A stretch of DNA of 43,679 nucleotides from the IMG/VR virus record IMGVR_UViG_2711768009_000009, one strand, 5' to 3'. Each line of letters opens with the position of its first letter. Positions within the stretch are counted from its first letter, which is position 1. The translations under genes were made by a program, and so were the position numbers. Source of the DNA: a virus. Lineage: Duplodnaviria; Heunggongvirae; Uroviricota; Caudoviricetes. Shown in pieces: positions 8,845 to 43,344 of the stretch. The notes below the pieces were generated by a model. The model did not search any database, had not been told where the DNA came from, and saw only the letters and a program-made list of their open reading frames with translations.

Positions 8845-9411
8845 TCACGGTACTTTTGGTGACGGAGCTGGTGAGGCAGGAAAATAACGATAAAGGGTGG
8901 AAAGGCCAATATCAAATATCAGTGCGATTTGTTTACGGGACTCGCCATTAGCCAGCAAACGGGCGATTTGCTCCCGCTCTTTCTCTGTCAGTTTCTGAGG
9001 TCTGCCGCCATGACGCCCCTGAGCACGGGCAGCAGCAAGACCCGCGCGTGTACGTTCAATAATGAGTTCCCGCTCCATTTCCGCCAGCGCGCCCATTATA
9101 TGGAAAAAGAAACGTCCCATGGGAGTGGATGTATCAATATTGTCCGTAATGCTGCGGAAGTTAACGCCGCGTTGCCGGAGTTCTTCTGTTAAAAGGACAA
9201 GGTGCTGCATACTGCGTCCAAGGCGATCCAGTTTCCAGACCAGCAGGGTATCCCCTGGCCGGAGTCGCTTTAATGCGCGTTTAAGTCCGGGACGCTCCCT
9301 TGTCTTACCGCTTATTCTGTCTTCGAAAAACAGCTCACATCCTGCACATTCCAGCGCATTTCTTTGTAGCGCCGTATTCTGGTCATTTGTTGACACCCTG
9401 ATATACCCAAT
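8845..9411 (-). CDS. gin: Gin/Hin/Pin-family serine DNA invertase (188 resolved codons; start codon lies in the adjacent N-run)
   Basis: IGYIRVSTNDQNTALQRNALECAGCE...VWKLDRLGRSMQHLV...MGRFFFHIMGALAEMERELIIERT... is a near-canonical Gin sequence with the catalytic Ser motif. Confidence 0.9.
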   Translation of the reverse strand: MGYIRVSTNDQNTALQRNALECAGCELFFEDRISGKTRERPGLKRALKRLRPGDTLLVWKLDRLGRSMQHLVLLTEELRQRGVNFRSITDNIDTSTPMGRFFFHIMGALAEMERELIIERTRAGLAAARAQGRHGGRPQKLTEKEREQIARLLANGESRKQIALIFDIGLSTLYRYFPASPAPSPKVP

Positions 9412-9668
9412 NNNNNNNNNNNNNNNNNNNNNNNNNNNNNNNNNNNNNNNNNNNNNNNNNNNNNNNNNNNNNNNNNNNNNNNNNNNNNNNNNNNNNNNNN
9501 NNNNNNNNNNNNNNNNNNNNNNNNNNNNNNNNNNNNNNNNNNNNNNNNNNNNNNNNNNNNNNNNNNNNNNNNNNNNNNNNNNNNNNNNNNNNNNNNNNNN
9601 NNNNNNNNNNNNNNNNNNNNNNNNNNNNNNNNNNNNNNNNNNNNNNNNNNNNNNNNNNNNNNNNNNNN
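9412..9668. other. Unresolved sequence (257 N) at the expected gin-proximal inversion crossover site
   Basis: N-run directly upstream of gin and adjacent to the alternative tail-fibre segment. Confidence 0.9.
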
Positions 9669-9871
9669 CCGCCATAAGACTGGGGTCGGTGACCGCACAT
9701 ATGCCCGGAACATGGGAAAGCTGGGATCTGAATCTGGGGGGCGGCAATGTTCTTACCGGAATTAAAGTACAGGATGTCGGTAAGAATACGGCAGATAACG
9801 TCGGCGGCGTGTATTACCGGCCGTTGCAGTATCTGTTAAATGGAGCATGGGTGACGGCTGCAAGTATATAA
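9669..9871 (+). CDS. Alternative tail-fibre C-terminal segment (S'v-like), 66 resolved codons on the opposite strand; silent in this orientation
   Basis: Post-gap part of ORF 9062..9871; ends ...NVGGVYYRPLQYLLNGAWVTAASI*; convergent with the S/U genes, as expected for the second variable cassette of an invertible segment. Confidence 0.4.
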
Positions 9872-9879
9872 TGATATTC

Positions 9880-9899
9880 AGAAGGCCTTCCGGCCTTCT
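9880..9899. terminator. Hairpin between convergent S'v fragment and tail fibre assembly gene (stem AGAAGGCC/GGCCTTCT, loop TTCC), T-rich on the plus side
   Basis: Perfect 8-bp stem with 4-nt loop, followed by TTATTACTG on the plus strand. Confidence 0.5.
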
Positions 9900-9902
9900 T
9901 TA

Positions 9903-10424
9903 TTACTGTGGCTGCTCAGGCCATTTAATGGCGTTAAATTCAGCTTCTGTTTTAATGGCGGGTAGTTCCATTTTCTTCACCTGACTGATGTATGCCATCC
10001 ATTGGGTAAGTGCTGCTCTGTCTTCATCGCTGATGGTGCCCAGTTGTAGCTCCGTTCTCCAGTCATTAATTTTTTCATATGCCTGATTAAGATATGACTG
10101 GCGCATTGCTTCCAGTTTTCTTGCGTAGTTAACCGGAATACGGGAGATTATGCCATTATCAAACTTCCAGTTTCCTGAAATATCCGTGCCTTCAGGGAGT
10201 TCATCGACCTCAACCACAGAAAACCCCGCAGGATACAGCGCCGAGGCGTCCTGTGATATTGAGCAGATAACGCCGCTGTCAGGTGTTATGCAAAGTTTAT
10301 ATTTTTTGGTGAATAATGGCAGGGATTCGTAGAAATCCTTACCATCTTCACTCTGGAAATACTGAACATTATTACCATATGGCATATTTTCAGGATAATA
10401 ACGGGTTATATTTTTTAGTTCCAT
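9903..10424 (-). CDS. Tail fibre assembly protein (Mu U-like), 173 aa
   Basis: ORF track; immediately downstream of the tail fibre gene; GGAGG RBS; size and position as for Mu U. Confidence 0.75.
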   Translation of the reverse strand: MELKNITRYYPENMPYGNNVQYFQSEDGKDFYESLPLFTKKYKLCITPDSGVICSISQDASALYPAGFSVVEVDELPEGTDISGNWKFDNGIISRIPVNYARKLEAMRQSYLNQAYEKINDWRTELQLGTISDEDRAALTQWMAYISQVKKMELPAIKTEAEFNAIKWPEQPQ

Positions 10425-10475
10425 AAAATCCTCCTGGAAATAAATCTGTTTTAAAATATATTATTTACTGACTAT

Positions 10476-11392
10476 TTATAACTGAGATACCGTAATCCAT
10501 GTACCTCCGACTAATTTTTGCAGGGGTCTGAATGCTATAAAATCGTTTGAAGCATCAACTTTACTGTCAATCTGCAGGCCTGCCATAACATTACCGTACG
10601 CAGAGTAATATGCCCCACCGTACATTACCTGCCTGTTCTCTGCTCCCAGCCTGATATCCTGGATATATCGGGAATCCGCATCCTGCTGTGTTATACCAGA
10701 AGTGATGTTTATGTCCTGCGTCCCGTCAAAGGGAACCCCATTAATATTTCTTGGGGTGGCGAGTCTATTCGCGGCAACGGCGGTGCCGTCCGATGGCAGN
10801 NNNNNNNNNNNNNNNNNNNNNNNNNNNNNNNNNNNNNNNNNNNNNNNNNNNNNNNNNNNNNNNNNNNNNNNNNNNNNNNNNNNNNNNNNNNNNNNNNNNN
10901 NNNNNNNNNNNNNNNNNNNNNNNNNNNNNNNNNNNNNNNNNNNNNNNNNNNNNNNNNNNNNNNNNNNNNNNNNNNNNNNNNNNNNNNNNNNNNNNNNNNN
11001 NNNNNNNNNNNNNNNNNNNNNNNNNNNNNNGCGGGACCAAGACTGTTTTTTGTGGCAAGCGTCCCCAGACCAAGATAACCACGGGCCAGACGCTGGGCCT
11101 CCGCACCGGCATCAGCAATTTCTTTCAGGTTATTTTTCCGGGAAAAGGCATTCGCAGCGATAATGGCTTTAATGGACAGCGTAAGCTGGTTTAACTGCGC
11201 CTTATCCGGCTGAATACTGGCTTCAGCCAGAATATTCAGCAGTTCGGCCTGGAGAATATTCAGCCAGTCCTGACCAATCCAGCTGATACCTTTTTGTCCG
11301 TCACCTTCGGTAAACCAGGTGGTGGTATTACTCTGCGCCGGTGCCAGCGCAGGCATATTCGCCACGCCGGAATTATTATCAACATGAAACAT
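10476..11392 (-). CDS. Tail fibre protein (Mu S-like), interrupted by an N-run; constant N-terminal part 11031-11392, variable C-terminal part 10476-10799 in a different apparent frame
   Basis: N-terminal part from ORF track 10709..11392; post-gap frame translates ...AVAANRLATPRNINGVPFDGTQDINITSG...GTWITVSQL*, a tail-fibre-like repeat region ending 50 bp before the U-like gene. Confidence 0.7.
10800..11030. other. Unresolved sequence (231 N) inside the tail fibre gene at the expected constant/variable junction
   Basis: N-run; reading frame before and after is not continuous for this length, so the gap length is probably arbitrary. Confidence 0.85.
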
Positions 11393-33038: not shown

Positions 33039-33461
33039 TCAGAAAAGCCGTGGCTGCGTGCGTTCCTGATGCAGGCGACGCTGGTTGCGGATAACGGAGT
33101 AAATCTGCGTCTCTGACATCTGGTAGTGGCGGCGCAGGGTTTCAATTTTTTCGCCCTGGCTCCAGCGGGAAAAAATTTCATTATTGCGCAGTTCGGTGAA
33201 AAGGGATTCACCGACCGGGAGATAATAACCACGCCCGCCCATGTACCCGGCCTGTGCGGCTGCAACCTTACGGGCAAGCATTCCCGCCTGAGCAGGTTCA
33301 ATCCCCTGACGGTGCAGTTCAGCACTGATCACATCAACCAGGTCCCGCAGCGTGCCGGGCCAGTTCTTTTTCAGCTCATCATCAGGAATATCATCCAGAC
33401 GGTCAATCAGCGCGTGCAGCTGTTCGCTGTCACCAAACATGCTCATCTGTGTTTCAGCCAT
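33039..33461 (-). CDS. Mor/C-family transcriptional activator (140 aa); by position and size the late-gene activator C
   Basis: ORF track; C-terminal ...GGRGYYLPVGESLFTELRNNEIFSRWSQGEKIETLRRHYQMSETQIYSVIRNQRRL resembles the Mor/C HTH region. Confidence 0.75.
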   Translation of the reverse strand: MAETQMSMFGDSEQLHALIDRLDDIPDDELKKNWPGTLRDLVDVISAELHRQGIEPAQAGMLARKVAAAQAGYMGGRGYYLPVGESLFTELRNNEIFSRWSQGEKIETLRRHYQMSETQIYSVIRNQRRLHQERTQPRLF

Positions 33462-33503: not shown

Positions 33504-33527
33504 AAATCCCGCGCTGTGGCGGGATTT
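33504..33527 (-). terminator. Strong intrinsic terminator of the early operon (9-bp stem AAATCCCGC/GCGGGATTT, loop of 6, then U-tract on the minus strand)
   Basis: Minus-strand RNA reads hairpin followed by UUUUUAUUUUAAA; lies between the gemA-like stop and the Mor/C-family start. Confidence 0.6.
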
Positions 33528-33531
33528 GGGG

Positions 33532-34044
33532 TTAACGGGGGAATGATTTTTCATACAGCCTGCAAACACGCTCATAACTCATCACTGCACGTTCCGACAT
33601 ATCCAGGGCTGCCAGCATTTTGCGGCGGTGCCAGCGTTTGAGACGCTCCAGCACATCAGAGGCCAGCGCGGGTTGTTGCTCCAGCCACTGCCAGTTAGCC
33701 ACACCTTCGCCGTCGTTCTGCGCGGCCGTCTGCGATTTCACCCAGCGGTTAAGGGCCGTTTCCCCGCCATCAGAGATAAATCCCTGCCGGTGCATCACTT
33801 TCCAGATGGCGCGAATTTTGGCGGTCACCGTACCCGGTTTTAAGGCCCGGTTAACCGGCTTCTGACGCACTTTAAAACCGCGTTTTTTGAAAACATCCAG
33901 CACGCGGGATAACTCACCGGGTGACATATCACGGCAACTGGATTTGCCGGTGGCTGCCAGCAGCGCGGATGTATAGGTATCATGGTCAAGCTGTAGATCG
34001 CGTTTTGCGACATGTATTAAGGTAATCAGGGAAGCGCGATTCAT
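33532..34044 (-). CDS. GemA-like early protein (Mu gp16 family), 170 aa
   Basis: ORF track; N-terminus MNRASLITLIHVAKRDLQLDHDTY...GKSSCRDMSPGELSRVLDVFKKRGF fits the recalled GemA/DUF1018 pattern; last gene before the early terminator. Confidence 0.6.
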   Translation of the reverse strand: MNRASLITLIHVAKRDLQLDHDTYTSALLAATGKSSCRDMSPGELSRVLDVFKKRGFKVRQKPVNRALKPGTVTAKIRAIWKVMHRQGFISDGGETALNRWVKSQTAAQNDGEGVANWQWLEQQPALASDVLERLKRWHRRKMLAALDMSERAVMSYERVCRLYEKSFPR

Positions 34045-34066: not shown

Positions 34067-34086
34067 GGCGGTGTTACCGCACCGCC
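34067..34086 (-). terminator. Intrinsic terminator-like hairpin (stem GGCGGTG/CACCGCC, loop 6) with U-tract on the minus strand, upstream of the gemA-like gene
   Basis: Minus-strand RNA reads GGCGGUG-CGGUAA-CACCGCC followed by CAUUUUUUAUGG. Confidence 0.5.
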
Positions 34087-34623: not shown

Positions 34624-34767
34624 TTATTCATCCTCACAATTTATACATGCAGTGTCGTCGCCCATATCGCAGTGGTTACATTTTATCTCACCACAATGTG
34701 GGCACTCTTTCAGATACTCCGGGTCCTCATTTCCACAGGTGGGACATTCAACAATTTGCTCATCCAT
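34624..34767 (-). CDS. Small zinc-ribbon protein, 47 aa with four CxxC pairs (MDEQIVECPTCGNEDPEYLKECPHCGEIKCNHCDMGDDTACINCEDE); below the ORF-track length cutoff
   Basis: Hand translation of the minus strand; ATG overlaps the stop of the upstream 110-aa gene (ATGGATGA) and its stop sits 1 nt before the next ATG. Confidence 0.55.
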   Translation of the reverse strand: MDEQIVECPTCGNEDPEYLKECPHCGEIKCNHCDMGDDTACINCEDE

Positions 34768-35092
34768 TATGTATCCCCTGTAATTCCGGCAAGGCCGAAA
34801 GATGGCACCAGTGCGTCACCTGTCCGTCCTCATCTTCAAGGCAGGCTCCGGTTTCTTCATCAATAAAAAAGCCTTCATACCCCATATGGCCGATGCGCAG
34901 TTCCTGTTGGTCACCATACTGAACAATCAGCACGACAGCCTCCATATCAGGCGGAAATGCGTCATCCAGTGAATGCCAGGGATAACCGCGCAAATCCCCG
35001 AAATAAACGCCGGTCAGCGTTCCGCCACAGAGCGGCATTCCGGCGGCACACACAAGAGGTTCATCTGATTCAACAAATAAGGTCGTTATCAT
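34760..35092 (-). CDS. Hypothetical acidic early protein (110 aa)
   Basis: ORF track; translationally coupled to neighbours. Confidence 0.5.
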   Translation of the reverse strand: MITTLFVESDEPLVCAAGMPLCGGTLTGVYFGDLRGYPWHSLDDAFPPDMEAVVLIVQYGDQQELRIGHMGYEGFFIDEETGACLEDEDGQVTHWCHLSALPELQGIHNG

Positions 35093-35640
35093 GGCGTTAA
35101 CTCCCGTAATACAGCGTCCTCGGCAGTCCGGCGACGGTAATAAACTGCGTGAGCAGAATGTTCAGATATTCCAAACTTTTCGCCAATTTCCCGGAATGAC
35201 AGACGGCGTGGGTAATCGGAATCACGCAGCTCACGTATAAGACGTACATCATCATCAGATATGCGCGTGCCGGGGCGTAACTCTCCGCACTTTGTTAATC
35301 CAGCACCAATCATTCCTGCCCGACATCTGACAGAATCTTTATTACGTCCGAGATATTCTCCCATTTGCTGGCAGGTCATTGTTCTGGCATTTTTTCGAAT
35401 AAACTTATCTTCATCAGGTGTAAATCTTGGGTGTTTATATTTCAGTAACTCCGGGTATGAACTGCGCAATACACCAGTCCGGTTATATACAGCCCAGACA
35501 GTTCTTTTTATTCTGGCAGCAATATCCTTAACCGGGGTGGATGAATAAAGCGCAATCAGCAGCGCATCTTCTTCAGGTGTCCACGGACGGACATGAGCGG
35601 GGGCGCGACCTTTTAGTCCCATGGGTTGTAATTTCATCAT
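35089..35640 (-). CDS. Putative DNA-binding early protein (183 aa): two Myb/SANT-like repeats plus C-terminal Mor/C-like HTH
   Basis: ORF track; WTPEEDALLIALY...IAARIKRTVWAVYNR and FTPDEDKFIRKNARTMTCQQMGEYLGRNKDSVRCRA repeats; C-terminal LSFREIGEKFGISEHSAHAVYYRRR. Confidence 0.5.
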   Translation of the reverse strand: MMKLQPMGLKGRAPAHVRPWTPEEDALLIALYSSTPVKDIAARIKRTVWAVYNRTGVLRSSYPELLKYKHPRFTPDEDKFIRKNARTMTCQQMGEYLGRNKDSVRCRAGMIGAGLTKCGELRPGTRISDDDVRLIRELRDSDYPRRLSFREIGEKFGISEHSAHAVYYRRRTAEDAVLRELTP

Positions 35641-35643
35641 GCA

Positions 35644-36159
35644 TCACCCCCTGACTCGCTTTTCAGCAGCATAAAACTCATCAGACAGTATTTCGGTCAT
35701 TTTCTGTTTTGCGGGTTTTACGCCGCACTGAAGGTAAATCACATCGTCAACGCAGAACCACTTCACAGGGCCAAACAGGATTGCCGAGAAATCAATACCC
35801 AACCAGAACAACAGCGCATCGGTTCTGGCATACGTGACGGGCGAATATTCACGCCACAGACTGTTCAGTTCATCAGAGGCAACACGCAGGGTTTTAGGGA
35901 TACGTGATGTGCGCGGTGTGCAGCTCCAGCCATTCGACGCAGTCGGTTTTCGCCATAAGTCGCGATGAAAAGGATATTTGTCCTCCGTAAAACGCAGTCC
36001 CTTAAAGTAAAATCCACTGATACCGGATACAAATACCGACCGGCACGCAACATTCAGCACGGCCTCAAGGCGTTTTGCCTCATCCTTAACTTTCTGGCAG
36101 TCCTGCTGGTATTTTTGCCACGCAGCCAGCGCGGAAGGGTTTGATGTTTTAAAGAACAT
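35644..36159 (-). CDS. Hypothetical early protein (171 aa)
   Basis: ORF track; no recognisable motif. Confidence 0.5.
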   Translation of the reverse strand: MFFKTSNPSALAAWQKYQQDCQKVKDEAKRLEAVLNVACRSVFVSGISGFYFKGLRFTEDKYPFHRDLWRKPTASNGWSCTPRTSRIPKTLRVASDELNSLWREYSPVTYARTDALLFWLGIDFSAILFGPVKWFCVDDVIYLQCGVKPAKQKMTEILSDEFYAAEKRVRG

Positions 36160-36692
36160 TACGCCACCTCCGCAGATATCCCGGCAGGCGCTGCTGTCCG
36201 GTCAACAATCAGGTAGCGCAGAACATGTTCAGTGATATTCCAGCCGCTTAAACCGCAGATAATGACGCCCAGGCGTATGTCGATATACGCCATCACAAAC
36301 TGGGGCACGCCTTCTTTCATGGCCTGCTCATCAACTTCAGCCACCACATAAACGGTTTCACAGGTCAGAACGCCCTGAGCAAATTCCCACGCCATCGACG
36401 GAATATCATGCCCCTCAATCCATGGCAGGGATTTTCTGAAGCCGCACCACTGAACATCATCAGCCGCAGATTCCTGGCTGCATTTGCGACGAACCGGCTG
36501 CACCGGGCGGGGACGCGGAATATCATAAAAACCGTTACATTCCGTCAGCACGCCTGCATCAACCGCATCACGCAGAAAATAAACCATGGAGGATGGCGGC
36601 ATATTCATTTTTTCAGCCAGTACACCGCAGGTCAGGCGGCCATAAATACACAGCCAGTTTTTAACCCCTTCAAGCACTTTTGCATCAATCAT
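36159..36692 (-). CDS. Hypothetical early protein with N-terminal winged-helix-like region (177 aa); preceded by a 14-codon upstream ORF
   Basis: ORF track; GVLAEKMNMPPSSMVYFLRDAVDAGVL HTH-like segment. Confidence 0.5.
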   Translation of the reverse strand: MIDAKVLEGVKNWLCIYGRLTCGVLAEKMNMPPSSMVYFLRDAVDAGVLTECNGFYDIPRPRPVQPVRRKCSQESAADDVQWCGFRKSLPWIEGHDIPSMAWEFAQGVLTCETVYVVAEVDEQAMKEGVPQFVMAYIDIRLGVIICGLSGWNITEHVLRYLIVDRTAAPAGISAEVA

Positions 36693-36837: not shown

Positions 36838-37368
36838 TTATTTATTCAGTCCGGCGTCCTGTTCAAAAGGCTCGACATAAAAACTTTCAGCGCCTTTATT
36901 CACCTTGATACCGGCAATGCCTTTCACAGCATCCGGCTCCGCCAGGACGGCTTCCTTGTTCACTTCCTCTTTCGTGCGGATGAAACGCTCAAGCCCCATA
37001 CGGCGCAGCATTTCAATCACACCTTCCACATCACGGCTGACGCTGCATGATGGCGTTCCCAGCCGCCATGACACCGTTCCGGTGGTCAGATTGGCTGTTT
37101 TGGTTTTGCCGCCGTTCGTCAGCTCATCACGGTTGGTTTTGCACCAGTCCTGAATCCCTTTAAAAAGCACTTTGATTTGCTTTTTAAGATTTTCAATCTG
37201 CGGCGTATAACGGGCGGTGATTTCTGCCACTTCGTCATTCATCGCCGTTTCCAGGCGCAGCGCCTCTCGCTGAATATCTCCCAGGGTGCGGATATCACGG
37301 CTGACTTCTTCCCGGGTCTGCGGTGCCGCCTCGGCTGCGGCCTTTAATTTTGTAACGCGTTTAGCCAT
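36838..37368 (-). CDS. gam: Gam-like host-nuclease inhibitor (Ku-like DNA-end binding protein), 176 aa
   Basis: ORF track; ...IRTLGDIQREALRLETAMNDEVAEITARY...CKTNRDELTNGGKTKTANLTTGTVSWR...RFIRTKEEVNKEA... fits the Mu Gam family as recalled. Confidence 0.85.
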   Translation of the reverse strand: MAKRVTKLKAAAEAAPQTREEVSRDIRTLGDIQREALRLETAMNDEVAEITARYTPQIENLKKQIKVLFKGIQDWCKTNRDELTNGGKTKTANLTTGTVSWRLGTPSCSVSRDVEGVIEMLRRMGLERFIRTKEEVNKEAVLAEPDAVKGIAGIKVNKGAESFYVEPFEQDAGLNK

Positions 37369-37379
37369 TTTGTTTTTCC

Positions 37380-37673
37380 TTATTGCAGTGTGCCTGATGC
37401 TTTATGCACGCGGTGGCGTTTAATGATGGCATCCGCTCCAAAAGACTGTGCAGATGCCTGAAATTCCGCTGAGAGAAACTGAATAATTGCAGGACTGTGA
37501 TACTGGAGAATACTTGCATAAACGTCACAGAGTGACGTCGGCCTGTTATCCGTATCACGTTCTGTTTTCACATCCACTCCAATCTTTTCATGCACTTCAA
37601 CACAGTCATTGCCTGCCAACTTTTCGTCATGCGAAACATGATTAAATTCAAAAATAACGCGTACTTTGCTCAT
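37380..37673 (-). CDS. Small early protein, paralog 2 of a tandem pair (97 aa from ATG MSKVRVIFEF)
   Basis: ORF track 37380..37700; N-terminus nearly identical to the upstream gene product. Confidence 0.5.
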   Translation of the reverse strand: MSKVRVIFEFNHVSHDEKLAGNDCVEVHEKIGVDVKTERDTDNRPTSLCDVYASILQYHSPAIIQFLSAEFQASAQSFGADAIIKRHRVHKASGTLQ

Positions 37674-37677
37674 GGAA

Positions 37678-37950
37678 TTACCCCTGTTGATTAAATTCAT
37701 TACCGTTAATAACCCCGGAAGCCATGCCTCTGTCTTTCATGAATGCACTGGCTTTCATTGCCACAAACTCTGCGAAGTTTCTGCTTTCTGCCAGCATAAC
37801 CACCCCAAAAATCATGGCGGGTCCATTATCTTTCTTCTTTATTCCGGTTGAACGTATATCCAGACTTACCCCTCTGTGCGTGCTGCCATCAGAGTTTTTG
37901 CAGATAACATCTTCCTTGTATTCGAAAATAATGCGTACGACTTTACTCAT
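37678..37950 (-). CDS. Small early protein, paralog 1 of a tandem pair (90 aa, MSKVVRIIFEY...)
   Basis: ORF track. Confidence 0.5.
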   Translation of the reverse strand: MSKVVRIIFEYKEDVICKNSDGSTHRGVSLDIRSTGIKKKDNGPAMIFGVVMLAESRNFAEFVAMKASAFMKDRGMASGVINGNEFNQQG

Positions 37951-38228
37951 CCTCTGGTCCTCGTTCTGTTTGGATAACTGACCCGGCGTCTAACCTCACG
38001 GCAGAACCGAATCATGGCATTAAAGGCTTCTTCCTCCGTCACCGCTTCCGGTATCCCCGGAACCAGTAACTGCTCCTGTTCATCACGTCCATGACGCGCC
38101 ATAACCTCAATCACATGCCGTACCGTGGCAGGCTTTCCGGCAACTATCGGCAATGCACCTTCCGGCAGGACGTAACCAAACTCAATAAGACCACTCGACC
38201 ACGCCCATGCAATGAGATTTTTTTTCAC
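37947..38228 (-). CDS. Hypothetical early protein (93 aa)
   Basis: ORF track. Confidence 0.45.
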   Translation of the reverse strand: MKKNLIAWAWSSGLIEFGYVLPEGALPIVAGKPATVRHVIEVMARHGRDEQEQLLVPGIPEAVTEEEAFNAMIRFCREVRRRVSYPNRTRTRG

Positions 38229-38496: not shown

Positions 38497-38724
38497 TTAG
38501 CTGACTTGTTTCGCACCAACAGAACGGCATATTCCGCTGTAAACTTCTGTCGCACCTTCGCGATCAAGTCCGGCAGATATCACCATTCGTGTGCGGTCAT
38601 TAAATTCAAAAAGTAAATCGCCACATTCTTTATTTTCGGCCAGTGAAATCACCTTCACGTTATCGAAATTAACCAGGTAAAAGCGTCCGTAAATATCAGG
38701 AATATTAAATACCGCCATAATCAC
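38497..38724 (-). CDS. Small early protein directly after B (75 aa); possibly Kil-like by position and size
   Basis: ORF track; overlaps the B stop by 4 nt; Mu kil occupies this position. Confidence 0.4.
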   Translation of the reverse strand: MIMAVFNIPDIYGRFYLVNFDNVKVISLAENKECGDLLFEFNDRTRMVISAGLDREGATEVYSGICRSVGAKQVS

Positions 38725-39662
38725 ACCTGTGAGAGTAATTCAGGGTTGGTATAAACCTCTTTAAAGGCCGCATTAATATGTTTTTCTGTCAGCGCCGCGC
38801 CTTCACCGCTGGCGGTGAGCCACGCCTGGTTAAGCGTATGTGTCAGAACGCGTAACGCTCCCGGCTTTTCAGCGATAGCCTGCATGACGGCCAGCTCGGC
38901 CTCACCACTGATCCCCCACGCCATGGCAATGGCCAGCACATCCGCCTTTTTGGCCTTGCGAAGTTGTTTTGTACGGGCAAGACGGCTGAACAGGCGCGAT
39001 AAATCATCAAAGGCGCGGCGTCCACCTTTAAACAATCCGCGCGGGTTACCAATAAGCACCATCCCGATCCCCGTGGCGTCCTGAATTGCCCGGAGTTGCT
39101 CCAGACCGTCAATACCAAGATGATCCGCCTCATCCACAATCACCAGTCCACGCGTTCCCATCAGGCGACGGCGGATGGCGCGGGATAATGCCCCTTTGTT
39201 CGCGCGGGTGTAATCAATCCCCAGCGCATCGGCCAGCTCCAGCAGACACTCCGTGACGCTGGAGTGCGCGGGTGACAGGGTGATCATCCAGGTGTTTGGT
39301 TGCTCCTGGCAGTAATTACGGGCAGTGGCCGTTTTACCCACACCCGGTACGCCCACAATAACGTTAATACAGCCCATCAGGCGAACCGCCTGAAACAGTG
39401 CGCGCAGCTCCTGGACTGTCTGAGTTTCCACAAACTGCGGCGGTTCCGGCAGTGCGCTTTGTTTATTCCAGTTCTCATACCAGGAGCGCAGGGAAGCAGC
39501 CACAGCAGCGTTATCGCCTTTATATTTTCCCTTACGGAAAGCCGATAATGTGCCGTCGGAAATTCCCGCCTCTCTGGCGATGGCATACTGCGTCAGTACG
39601 CCGCCATCAATAAGTTCATCAATGGTCTTGATTACATCGTTAATATCGGTCATATTATTCAC
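38721..39662 (-). CDS. Mu B-like transposition ATPase (AAA+), 313 aa, GTG start
   Basis: ORF track; Walker A VGVPGVGKTAT; N-terminal HTH-like region; follows transposase A. Confidence 0.9.
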   Translation of the reverse strand: MNNMTDINDVIKTIDELIDGGVLTQYAIAREAGISDGTLSAFRKGKYKGDNAAVAASLRSWYENWNKQSALPEPPQFVETQTVQELRALFQAVRLMGCINVIVGVPGVGKTATARNYCQEQPNTWMITLSPAHSSVTECLLELADALGIDYTRANKGALSRAIRRRLMGTRGLVIVDEADHLGIDGLEQLRAIQDATGIGMVLIGNPRGLFKGGRRAFDDLSRLFSRLARTKQLRKAKKADVLAIAMAWGISGEAELAVMQAIAEKPGALRVLTHTLNQAWLTASGEGAALTEKHINAAFKEVYTNPELLSQV

Positions 39663-39735: not shown

Positions 39736-41823
39736 TCAGGCCAGCGGATCACTTTCTTTTAATTTCGCTTCGAGCAGTTGCAATCCCCGCTGGAAATTAC
39801 GCTCGTATTCTTCATCAGGTTCATCGTCAGCGACCGGTTGCTGAACGGTCACCGTATTACCCACAGGGCGGTATATGTTTTCCAGCCAGGGCTCCTGCGG
39901 CTTGTGCTCCAGCACGTTGACAACCTCATCCTCGGCATCACGGATTTTTTCCTCTGCGCGTTTACGCATGCCTTTAAGGCGCTGCTGCTGTTTGTAGTAT
40001 TCCGCGCTGACAGGGAAGGCTTCGCGTTTATTGCCGTCCCATACCGCCTCGCAAATCACGCTGCCATCCGGGCGGCGCACGGTAATTCGTTCGGCATCAT
40101 GAATGTCATAGCTGATAAGTACCTTACGGCCATGCTCGTCACGCAGCTCGGGCGCGTAGTAAATATTATTCAGCCAGCGTATTTCACAGCGTCTTACAGG
40201 GCGCTCCACCATCGGCCGGAACATATCCCGCAGTTCAACATCGGACAGCCATTCAATTTCCGTGTCCTCTTCCGCCAGGCGTTTTTTTCTGAACTCCGCC
40301 GGGCTGTAATGTTTACCGTTCGGCTTCATGGGTAATTCATCGTGCGGCCGGTTGTTGTACCACTCAACACCGTCACGAATGGCATCAATCAGTTCAGACC
40401 AGGACGGTAAATCACGCATCGCTGACTGCTGCCGGGCGTTCAGCCGTTTGCCCTGTTGCAGGGCACTGAATGCCGAGCGTAAATCGCGGTTGGTTTTACG
40501 TAACGTCTCGCGATCTGCTCCTTTCCCGAAATAGGTGCGGTATTTACGGGCTATGCGCATCGGTAATGTGCGGTTAAGCCGTTCGATAATGCCCCGTCCC
40601 TGCGGATTACCGGCAATCCCTGTCGGGTGATTAATCCCCAGTCGTGGCAGTATCCCCACAATCTCCTTATCCAGGACGTCGGCGGTTTCCCCGGAGCCAT
40701 TATCCGAGTAATACAGAAACGGTTTGCCATGATGGCGAATACCGTGCTGTATGGCACCGGCTACGGCGAAAACATTTTCAGCCAGGTCAAGGCTCCAGCC
40801 CACCACAAAGCGCGTGCCACCGTCGATAACAAAGGTCACTTCCGGTGCGAATGGCCGCCCGTGAACCGGGTGCGCGCATTTCAGCTTCATGCCGTGACCG
40901 TCACCAATCCAGACATAATTCACCGGCATTCTGGACCAGTCGCGGCGCGTGAATCCCTCAAGCTGACGGTATTCACTGCCAGTTACCCGGCCTTTTTGTT
41001 TCACCACTTCCGGCAGTTTCTTCATTGCGCGGCGAATGGTGTCATAAGAGGGCATGATATCGAGCATATAAGGCTCATCAGCGTGCCGGTGCTGCCATTC
41101 AGCAACAAAATCCTCGTAAGCCTCGGTCATTGGTCGGCCGTTTGACTGGCGATACTGCGCCAGAAATTCGGGCAGCCAGTTAATATCTTCGGCTTTTATT
41201 TCCTGGCGTTTACCCGGTGCCAGTAAAAGCAGGCGTTCAGCGGCGTTCTGTGCCTTGTTAAAGGCCGCAATCCAGCGTTTCAGCGTGATTTCACTCAACG
41301 CGCGGCTGTTTCCCTTTTTGGCGTTCGCCGTCTCAACCATTGCCACAATGCGCTCGTCCAGTTGTGATCGTGCCAGGCTGTTAACGAGGAACCGGATAGC
41401 TTTAGCGCAGCTGAAACCGGGTTGTTGCGTGAATTTCAGCACCTCACTGACGATCGCAATGCGTGCGTCTGCCACCTGGCGCTGGTTTTCAGTCAGGGCA
41501 TTGAGGCGTTCGACCATCAGTTGTGGTGATCCGCGATATGCCTCCACCGCATCAACCACGGCAGACGAGCGTCTGGCCTTTGTCACCACCGGAGCCGGTG
41601 ATTCATCGGCTTTTTGCGTCATCAGTTGCAGGGCATAACGTTCGCGTAATGCCTGCTGTGTCACTTCAGGTAAACAGTCAATGCTGTATTCAAAACCTTT
41701 AGCGCCTTTCTTGCGGCGTCTGCTGGTTTCGCTGGTTGCATACTTCCTGATTGAATAGCGAACGCCTTGCTCCGTTCCCGGCATCCCCGGTAATCCAACC
41801 AGTTCTTTAACTGAAGCAAACAT
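39736..41823 (-). CDS. Mu A-like DDE transposase (695 aa)
   Basis: ORF track; size, position after ner, DDE-core-like region ...YVWIGDGHGMK... Confidence 0.9.
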   Translation of the reverse strand: MFASVKELVGLPGMPGTEQGVRYSIRKYATSETSRRRKKGAKGFEYSIDCLPEVTQQALRERYALQLMTQKADESPAPVVTKARRSSAVVDAVEAYRGSPQLMVERLNALTENQRQVADARIAIVSEVLKFTQQPGFSCAKAIRFLVNSLARSQLDERIVAMVETANAKKGNSRALSEITLKRWIAAFNKAQNAAERLLLLAPGKRQEIKAEDINWLPEFLAQYRQSNGRPMTEAYEDFVAEWQHRHADEPYMLDIMPSYDTIRRAMKKLPEVVKQKGRVTGSEYRQLEGFTRRDWSRMPVNYVWIGDGHGMKLKCAHPVHGRPFAPEVTFVIDGGTRFVVGWSLDLAENVFAVAGAIQHGIRHHGKPFLYYSDNGSGETADVLDKEIVGILPRLGINHPTGIAGNPQGRGIIERLNRTLPMRIARKYRTYFGKGADRETLRKTNRDLRSAFSALQQGKRLNARQQSAMRDLPSWSELIDAIRDGVEWYNNRPHDELPMKPNGKHYSPAEFRKKRLAEEDTEIEWLSDVELRDMFRPMVERPVRRCEIRWLNNIYYAPELRDEHGRKVLISYDIHDAERITVRRPDGSVICEAVWDGNKREAFPVSAEYYKQQQRLKGMRKRAEEKIRDAEDEVVNVLEHKPQEPWLENIYRPVGNTVTVQQPVADDEPDEEYERNFQRGLQLLEAKLKESDPLA

Positions 41824-42241: not shown

Positions 42242-42787
42242 ATGAACAAGCAAACAACAACATCTCTTTCTTTTCCTGGTGGTAGAAAAGAAAGCATTGC
42301 TGAGCGTCTGAAAAGGCTGATTGGCTCCCGCAGCGTCAGAGCTGCAGCAAGAGATTGGGGGCTTTCATTTTCAACACTAAACAATTATCTGTCTCGTGGC
42401 ACTGAGCCATCCTTAAGTGTCGCCCTTCAGATTGCGTCTATCGAAGGAGTAAGTGTTGAGTGGCTATGTGGATTCAGTGATGCATCACAAGTGAATCGGT
42501 GTGAGATCAAGGAAAATCAAGATGAAAGCAAGAAGATAATTATGACGATTATCAGCGCACTTGATGAAAAAGACTTAGAGCAGCTATCGAAAAATTTGGT
42601 TCTGAATGGAGCCAAGTACTTAGCTCGGTTGTTAGAGCCTGAAAATCAAGATCTAATCCGCTTAGAAGGAAGGAAAAGAATAGCTGCATTACAGCTTGAA
42701 GGTATGTCTGACGAACGCGTCAGAGAGATTTTGGAAGAAACTGAGAGAAGTCGCAAATCTAACGCGGTAGAACCAAAAGCGGGTTAA
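42242..42787 (+). CDS. Mu c-like lysogeny repressor (181 aa)
   Basis: ORF track; divergent from ner, adjacent to the left end; N-terminal DNA-binding region ...AERLKRLIGSRSVRAAARDWGLSFSTLNNYLSRG... Confidence 0.75.
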   Translation: MNKQTTTSLSFPGGRKESIAERLKRLIGSRSVRAAARDWGLSFSTLNNYLSRGTEPSLSVALQIASIEGVSVEWLCGFSDASQVNRCEIKENQDESKKIIMTIISALDEKDLEQLSKNLVLNGAKYLARLLEPENQDLIRLEGRKRIAALQLEGMSDERVREILEETERSRKSNAVEPKAG

Positions 42788-43020: not shown

Positions 43021-43344
43021 TCACCTGGTTATATGTCGCCAGTCGATACCTTCCAGCAGCATCGCCAGCTGCGCCTGTGTAAGGAACACTTTGCCATCAC
43101 GGGCTGACGGCCAGGCGAAGCGCCCACGCTCCAGCCGTTTGGTCAGGAGGCACAGTCCGTCACTGGTGGACCACAGCAGTTTAACCTGACTGCCGCTGCG
43201 GCCCCGGAAAATGAAAACATGGCCGGACATGGGATCGTCTTTCAGCGCCGTCTGTACTTTCGCAGCCAGGCCGTTGAAGCCATTTCTCATATCGGTGATA
43301 CCGGCAACCAGCCAAATTTTGATCCCGGAAGGTAACGGGATCAT
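43021..43344 (-). CDS. tnpB: IS66-family TnpB (orf2), 107 aa, C-terminus probably altered by the prophage junction
   Basis: ORF track; MIPLPSGIKIWLVAGITDMRNGFNGLAAKVQ...HVFIFRGRSGSQVKLLW...GLCLLTKRLERGRF is a canonical IS66 Orf2 sequence. Confidence 0.85.
   Translation of the reverse strand: MIPLPSGIKIWLVAGITDMRNGFNGLAAKVQTALKDDPMSGHVFIFRGRSGSQVKLLWSTSDGLCLLTKRLERGRFAWPSARDGKVFLTQAQLAMLLEGIDWRHITR

Follow-up and report, generated by a model that had tools for sequence, protein, structure and literature searches.

The window analysed here is a 43,679-nucleotide stretch of DNA from a virus of the Caudoviricetes (IMG/VR record IMGVR_UViG_2711768009_000009), and the present work concerns positions 35089-36692 within it, in particular a gene for a 183-residue protein with three predicted helix-turn-helix (HTH) modules. 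The window is a segment of an Escherichia coli chromosome carrying a Mu-like prophage that is read on the minus strand. The DNA of segment 34300-37400 is 100% identical to the chromosome of E. coli strain 600029, and similar DNA was found in 232 of 5426 complete E. coli genomes. The prophage is identified as Mu-like by the genes for transposase A (MuA, 39736-41823), B (MuB, 38721-39662), Gam (36838-37368), GemA (33532-34044) and Mor (33039-33461), all read on the minus strand, because these flank 35089-36692. An earlier reading made from the sequence only (hereafter the sequence-only reading) had described two open reading frames (ORFs) here, one of 177 aa (36159-36692, minus strand) and one of 183 aa (35089-35640, minus strand). 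Both lie at the coordinates given, but the interval holds three minus-strand ORFs, not two; the third, of 171 aa (35644-36159, minus strand), had gone unmentioned.

The start of the 171-aa gene overlaps the stop of the 177-aa gene in the motif TAATG, a gap of 3 nt, with the ribosome-binding site AGGGGG ahead of it, separates the 171-aa from the 183-aa gene, and the stop of the latter overlaps the start of a following 110-aa ORF in the motif ATGA. The ribosome-binding sites at these tight junctions are plausible, and the 177-, 171- and 183-aa genes form one translationally coupled unit. Measured against the allele in LC727881, the ratio of nonsynonymous to synonymous substitution rates (dN/dS) is 0.07, 0.16 and 0.27, respectively, which identifies all three ORFs as real genes under purifying selection. 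Counts of internal promoter-like and terminator-like sites at 35-37 kb were not above those in shuffled sequence. Further along the prophage, gemA is bracketed on the coding strand by two strong terminator-like hairpins with T-runs (34067-34086 and 33504-33527, both minus strand), which may be attenuation or termination points of the early operon; such points have been described for the early operon of Mu, to which the hairpins flanking gemA are likened. In the explanation that we favour, and that we hold as a whole to be fairly likely, 35089-36692 would be part of the Pe-driven early operon of an E. coli Mu-like prophage.

The 177-aa protein corresponds to gp11 of phage Mu. It shares 68% identity with gp11 over its full length of 177 aa, matches phrog_1949 (expect value, E, 4e-105) and the Pfam family PF25754 Gp11_C (E 5.7e-41, residues 90-167), and its gene directly follows gam in the gene order, as in Mu. 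The sequence-only reading had divided this protein into a winged-helix-like N-terminus and an uncharacterised C-terminal domain. The latter is confirmed and corresponds to the beta-rich Gp11_C domain (aa 90-167; 36192-36425, minus strand), for which a search for relatives among solved structures detected none. The former is supported by prediction only: in an AlphaFold2 model built from 31 homologues, residues 1-50 form three helices with a predicted local distance difference test score (pLDDT) of 71-84, the wing itself being poorly modelled. The same N-terminal segment is the most conserved part of the gp11 family. As judged from the model, the N-terminus of Mu gp11 is probably a winged helix, predicted here for aa 1-58 (36519-36692, minus strand). 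This assignment is tempered by the moderate confidence of the model overall (mean pLDDT 58.7); by sequence, no HTH family reached significance for the N-terminus, the top match among PDB profiles being a MarR protein at E 0.77.

The 171-aa protein is likewise the counterpart of a Mu early protein, gp12, with which it shares 55% identity over 169 aa (E 3e-69). It matches phrog_2314 (E 1e-84), and its Salmonella orthologues have a precomputed match to PF26885 Phage_Mu_Gp12 on record; a search of the PDB gave no match. Literature searches on the function of Mu gp9, gp11 and gp12 gave nothing relevant, and an NCBIfam search returned nothing useful. None of the 183-, 171-, 177- and 110-aa proteins has a PADLOC match, and a role as a defence-system component was rejected on that ground.

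The 183-aa protein (35089-35640, minus strand) is basic, with an isoelectric point of 9.9 and a net charge of +12. The sequence-only reading had proposed two Myb/SANT-like repeats followed by a C-terminal HTH, and this architecture is supported by profile alignment with hhalign, by a profile match to c-Myb and by AlphaFold2. The structure prediction, built from 21 homologues (pLDDT 84), contains three-helix bundles at residues 22-58, 75-110 and 129-169 together with a terminal helix at 173-181, while the N-terminal tail is of low confidence (pLDDT < 50). Following this tail of 17 residues, repeat 1 (aa 18-58; 35467-35589, minus strand) has helices at 22-32, 37-44 and 48-58 and is aligned to c-Myb R2. 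Repeat 2 (aa 71-112; 35305-35430, minus strand), with helices at 75-84, 90-97 and 101-110, is aligned to c-Myb R3, including the G-R motif ahead of helix 3, and also to the N-terminal module of Mu gp9. The motifs WTPEEDALL and FTPDEDKFI highlighted by the earlier reading are present and start at W20 and F73, respectively. A divergent third HTH module (aa 125-170; 35131-35268, minus strand; helices 129-140, 149-156 and 160-169) lines up with module two of Mu gp9 and module three of T5 D5. The protein ends in a conserved C-terminal helix (aa 171-183, RTAEDAVLRELTP; 35092-35130, minus strand), of low family entropy (0.72 bits) and with R170, T172 and P183 invariant, which is a candidate partner-binding element.

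Comparison of the modules with one another gave an hhalign probability of 98% for repeat 1 versus repeat 2 (E 1.2e-13) and only weak similarity of the third module to either (11-23%). By this profile comparison repeats 1 and 2 are clearly homologous, their similarity lying far beyond chance, and the predicted composition of the protein is two homologous repeats resembling Myb, SANT and the GcrA DNA-binding domain plus one divergent HTH. Across the family, variability peaks in the third helices of the modules (1.66-1.95 bits versus 0.66-1.25 bits in the first helices); the N-terminal tail and the C-terminal helix are conserved, as are the first helices. R54 and R107, two basic residues of the third helices, are invariant or nearly so.

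The D5-like, Myb/SANT-type phage DNA-binding proteins include the 183-aa protein as a compact member. This protein matches phrog_323, “transcriptional regulator, D5-like”, at E 5.3e-53, with residues 2-182 on profile positions 80-256. To the same family belong the D5 protein of phage T5 (T5.118, 255 aa; E 1.2e-71), Mu gp9 (E 5e-29) and phiEco32 gp99. Direct alignment of the 183-aa family with T5 D5 gave an hhalign probability of 96.4% (E 1.1e-9) over 147 columns, covering D5 residues 71-232 and all three modules, and alignment with Mu gp9 (Mup09, 99 aa) gave 97.4% (E 1e-11) over repeat 2 and the third HTH. When the family profile was searched against the PDB, c-Myb R2R3 was the top solved relative, in register over both repeats (E 1.8e-6), with B-Myb and other Myb structures ranking after it; the homologues P0017-P0025 have precomputed Pfam Myb matches. 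The sequence-only reading had asked whether the proteins of the region are homologous to Mu early proteins of known function. Such homology was not found, Mu gp9, gp11 and gp12 being uncharacterised, and the homology that is detectable leads instead to the characterised D5 of T5.

Two other family assignments were rejected. The third HTH had been likened to the Mor/C region; the HTH itself is upheld, but its likeness to Mor/C (PF08765) is not, as hhalign against the Mor of the window gave a probability of 0.2%, BLAST against Mu Mor gave E 1.2 and no Pfam Mor match was obtained. Its sub-threshold Pfam matches are to HTH_AsnC-type, HTH_10 and Sigma70_r4. Sister alleles of the 183-aa protein are named “AsnC family protein” by NCBI, but this label is a misnomer: HTH_AsnC-type reaches 18.8 bits where the cut-off is 27 and covers residues 130-164 only, and no AsnC ligand-binding (RAM) domain family is among the Pfam matches at E <= 1.

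Proteins of this kind are widespread. RefSeq holds WP_000977059.1, “SANT/Myb-like DNA-binding domain-containing protein”, at the same position in a record with 100% identical DNA, and the 183-aa protein is 99% identical to a cluster that NCBI names “SANT/Myb domain-containing protein” (447 member sequences, ~1000 contigs). An exhaustive HMMER search returned 1141 clusters (50% identity) at E <= 1e-3. Among them are proteins of 300-800 aa with 3-12 tandem copies, some fused to superfamily 2 (SF2) helicases, and many of these longer relatives score strongly on Pfam Myb or GcrA. P0151, P0270 and P0242, for instance, are bacterial or phage proteins of 500-800 aa with several to a dozen tandem Myb-like repeats (6 matched stretches in P0151 and 12 in P0242 by HMMER), fused in P0151 and P0270 to an SF2 helicase (ResIII and Helicase_C). 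In view of PHROG 323, the 1141 clusters and the RefSeq name, the proposal that Myb-like repeats are uncommon in phage early proteins does not hold. Nor is the gene specific to the lineage of this prophage, as had been suggested, since the same gene occurs in P2-like prophages and T5 D5, Mu gp9 and phiEco32 gp99 belong to the family.

In mycobacteriophages the repeats are located in HNH endonuclease or methylase genes. In Mycobacterium phage Bombitas (gp109-gp110; locus L062, 2004-3887) a C5-cytosine methylase gene appears split, the coding sequence comprising the N-terminal half of the methylase domain (aa 4-179) and then a Myb-like repeat region; sister phages have the same region annotated as HNH endonuclease. 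The arrangement suggests a homing-endonuclease insertion in the Bombitas methylase gene.

Scanning viral contigs with the family alignment yielded 51 loci; the corresponding scan of genome contigs gave no confirmed relative. Conservation among Mu-like prophages was borne out, the gene recurring in E. coli and Salmonella Mu-like loci (homologues of 56-99% identity) in the order Gam-gp11-gp12-X-110aa-(gp13-gp14)-GemA-Mor, where X denotes the 183-aa gene. P2-like prophages, with homologues of 38-46% identity, carry the genes as ASCH-Dam methylase-(109 aa)-X-gpA; there X follows the Dam-type methylase gene directly or after one 109-aa ORF, and its stop overlaps the start of replication gene A. Together with T5, in which D5 lies between the ligase and the helicase/primase/polymerase genes, the context of the D5-like gene is always an early or a replication module.

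The 110-aa ORF (34760-35092, minus strand) is DUF551-like. It matches phrog_6925 (E 2e-51) and DUF551 only at E 0.06, has no Mu homologue, and comes after the 183-aa gene in the majority of Mu-like loci inspected, L017 and L025 being exceptions. Kinship with the 109-aa ORF of the P2-like prophages was considered and rejected, none being detected. Beyond it lies a 47-aa four-cysteine zinc-ribbon ORF (34624-34767, minus strand), 88% identical over 41 aa to Mu gp13 and matching phrog_5584 (E 3e-26), which is unannotated in the identical RefSeq chromosome NZ_CM128582. In two Salmonella Mu-like loci (L007, 7040-7987; L009, 2624-3700) the slot filled here by gp13 and gp14 holds a gene for a dATP/dGTP pyrophosphohydrolase (PF04447), a short distance downstream of the homologue of the 183-aa gene.

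Compared with Mu, this prophage has the 183-aa and 110-aa genes inserted between gp12 and gp13. The 183-aa gene is 71% identical to the LC727881 allele as compared with 92-99% in flanking genes, its dS is also higher, and it behaves as an allelic cassette. Insertion and cassette behaviour alike would fit a nuclease-less remnant, or domesticated DNA-binding module, of a homing endonuclease, that is, a mobile cassette that spread to Mu-like and P2-like early regions with little or no role in the life cycle. The occurrence of the same repeats in HNH endonucleases that interrupt the mycobacteriophage C5-methylase gene points the same way, as do weak PHROG matches to HNH and other endonuclease families and a weak match of a Citrobacter homologue to the Pfam “homing endonuclease associated repeat”. 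Conversely, the dN/dS of 0.27 and the preservation of the three-module architecture across relatives at 37-99% identity indicate a maintained function, Pfam and PHROG searches place no nuclease domain in either the 183-aa protein or the 110-aa ORF, and the gene keeps a stable position with translational coupling in the operon in two phage types. We regard this origin as very improbable.

The same contexts and the entropy profile bear on a second alternative, modelled on GcrA, a monomeric sigma-70 cofactor at methylated sites (PMC5887438, PMC4647560, PMC9976885). With this precedent, the 183-aa protein could be a monomeric sequence-specific transcription factor, possibly reading a Dam-methylated motif, the N-terminal tail or C-terminal helix of which would contact RNA polymerase and thereby switch phage or host promoters on or off. 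The longer relatives with the same repeat match Pfam GcrA at up to E 8e-27, whereas the 183-aa protein has no Pfam GcrA (PF07750) match at E <= 1 and no GcrA chain appeared in the profile search of the PDB. A Dam-type methylase gene lies upstream in the P2-like prophages, but no methylase, Dam or other, was found in the window. Variable third (recognition) helices are expected if alleles read different sequences, but may be no more than exposed surface, and the conserved N-terminal tail and C-terminal helix could bind a partner, although a counterpart of the sigma-interacting domain of GcrA was not detected. On balance a GcrA-like function is unlikely.

A third alternative arises from recent work on D5. 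According to a 2026 preprint, D5 is an HTH protein of 26 kDa that was observed at the mass of a monomer, has mild toxicity for E. coli and, on being sensed, triggers the type IX retron-Kva2; an AlphaFold3 prediction led to the proposal that the D5 HTH engages the multicopy single-stranded DNA (msDNA) of the retron, and a phage escaping retron-Kva2 carries W74* in D5 (PMC13405049). In our hhalign alignment W74 corresponds to W20, the conserved first residue of repeat 1, and the escaper D5 would be devoid of all three HTH modules because W74* stops at the start of repeat 1. The 183-aa protein might correspondingly be a host-targeting or counter-defence factor that binds host DNA or defence nucleic acids to silence or decoy them or, in the converse form, the molecule that host systems sense. 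Host-targeting had also been raised by the sequence-only reading. That the gene is an accessory, swappable early gene agrees with such a role, and so do the D5 precedent of mild toxicity, retron triggering and proposed msDNA binding, and the position of the escaper stop at the conserved tryptophan. Phage DNA-binding proteins that silence defence genes are known (CasPRs), but they use other folds; a relationship with them was rejected since CasPRs carry CapR and AP2 domains. Furthermore, no known anti-defence family was matched, the absence of a PADLOC match refers to a library that covers defence and not anti-defence proteins, and recognition by a retron is no function of the protein itself. 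This alternative, too, is improbable.

Elements of the second and third alternatives may be combined. Compact D5-like proteins could be allele-specific DNA readers whose hypervariable recognition helices retarget them to (possibly Dam-methylated) sites, where they would function either as monomeric cofactors in the manner of GcrA or as silencers, the targets being genes of the host or of rival prophages; they could also be sensed by type IX retrons. If true, sensing by type IX retrons would explain the cassette-like turnover of alleles. We offer this as a speculation that is quite unlikely to be correct.

The favoured explanation is that the 183-aa protein is an accessory early duplex-DNA-binding protein with a D5-like action on the timing of replication or transcription, and it carries the same fair likelihood, given for the whole, as the early-operon assignment above. 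The gene structure, the homologies, the modelled fold, the genomic settings and the purifying selection are direct results of the analysis; DNA binding, its mode and a biological role are inferred as follows. Early translation of the Pe transcript would supply the protein. Probably acting as a monomer, it would bind duplex DNA with the third helix of every module set into successive major grooves, and would go on to affect DNA replication and/or the passage from early to late transcription, in line with what has been reported of T5 D5. The T5 GenBank record describes D5 as a DNA-binding protein that DNA replication and late transcription depend on and that has a part in shut-off, and McCorquodale et al. 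1979, as cited in PMC12630848, report D5 to be DNA-binding and to affect replication and late gene expression. A DNA-binding role is also consistent with the occurrence of the module inside DNA enzymes, i.e. the SF2 helicase fusions and the mycobacteriophage HNH/methylase genes. Furthermore, the gene may fill the role of the two-module Mu gp9, which the prophage lacks: no gp9 homologue was found upstream of gam in the window. The ORFs of 106, 90 and 93 aa that extend there from the kil-like region to gam (37380-38228, minus strand) have no counterpart among Mu gp6-gp9.

Several observations weigh against this explanation. The relation to T5 D5 is remote, with only ~29% identity over the aligned columns, and D5 has ~70 extra N-terminal residues missing from the 183-aa protein. 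Moreover, D5 belongs to a virulent phage and is essential for growth, whereas temperate prophages of the Mu-like and P2-like types carry the 183-aa gene as an accessory, and it must be dispensable because Mu and P2 themselves do not have it. The protein falls below the Pfam gathering thresholds for Myb (19.7 versus 24.4 bits for PF00249 and 16.5 versus 22.9 bits for PF13921), and a whole-chain Foldseek search with the model gave no significant match. Finally, SANT-type domains can bind proteins instead of DNA.

The value of these results is modest and lies mainly in annotation; the understanding of Mu-like phages is unchanged. Positions 35089-36692 hold ordinary early genes, namely the counterparts of Mu gp11 and gp12 and an already-annotated relative of D5. 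Still, a common prophage gene of E. coli and Salmonella, named “SANT/Myb-like” or, wrongly, “AsnC family”, and Mu gp9 are hereby linked to the characterised D5 of T5. Given the recent report that T5 D5 triggers a type IX retron, the D5-like proteins of temperate phages become candidates both for triggering such retrons and for modulating early replication or transcription. A by-product is the winged helix predicted for the N-terminus of Mu gp11.

Elsewhere in the window, a 571-aa IpaH-type type III secretion effector (LRR_TTSS and NEL E3 ubiquitin ligase, E 7e-77) is encoded just outside the Mu-like prophage (299-2014, plus strand), adjoining the tail-fibre gene remnant of another prophage (2753-3748). 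A 310-aa Mom-family protein (4479-5411, minus strand), with the Pfam Mom domain at residues 96-298 and a ~95-residue N-terminal extension outside it, is a probable marker of the right-hand prophage end. The 684-aa protein encoded at 6705-8759 (minus strand) combines a sialate O-acetylesterase-like SASA domain with DUF6645 and is probably a tail fibre or tail spike; beside its gene, a low-GC stretch (9000-11000, 35-38% GC) holds a tail-fibre assembly gene and two ORFs lacking a Pfam match. At the other end, the presumed repressor is a 181-aa ORF (42242-42787) with no Pfam match at E <= 1e-5, and an IS66 Orf2 (TnpB) gene (43021-43344, minus strand) lies directly beyond the repressor end of the prophage.

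Comparison with known systems places the three genes as follows. The gp11 and gp12 counterparts keep their Mu order behind gam and are the Mu genes themselves in a Mu-like prophage that has diverged. With Myb/SANT proteins the 183-aa protein shares tandem three-helix repeats of ~50 residues that can be aligned to those of c-Myb. Of the core tryptophans of c-Myb, however, an aromatic residue is kept only at the first (W20 and F73), the second and third being aliphatic, and the third module is not a Myb repeat. The DNA-binding domain of Caulobacter GcrA (PDB 5YIU) is a single module where the 183-aa protein has three, and the sigma-70-interacting domain sets GcrA apart as well. Mu gp9 has two modules and is encoded upstream of gam, whereas the 183-aa gene lies downstream of gp12, both genes belonging to the Mu-type semi-essential early region. 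With T5 D5, finally, the 183-aa gene has in common that both are early genes located within or beside replication functions.

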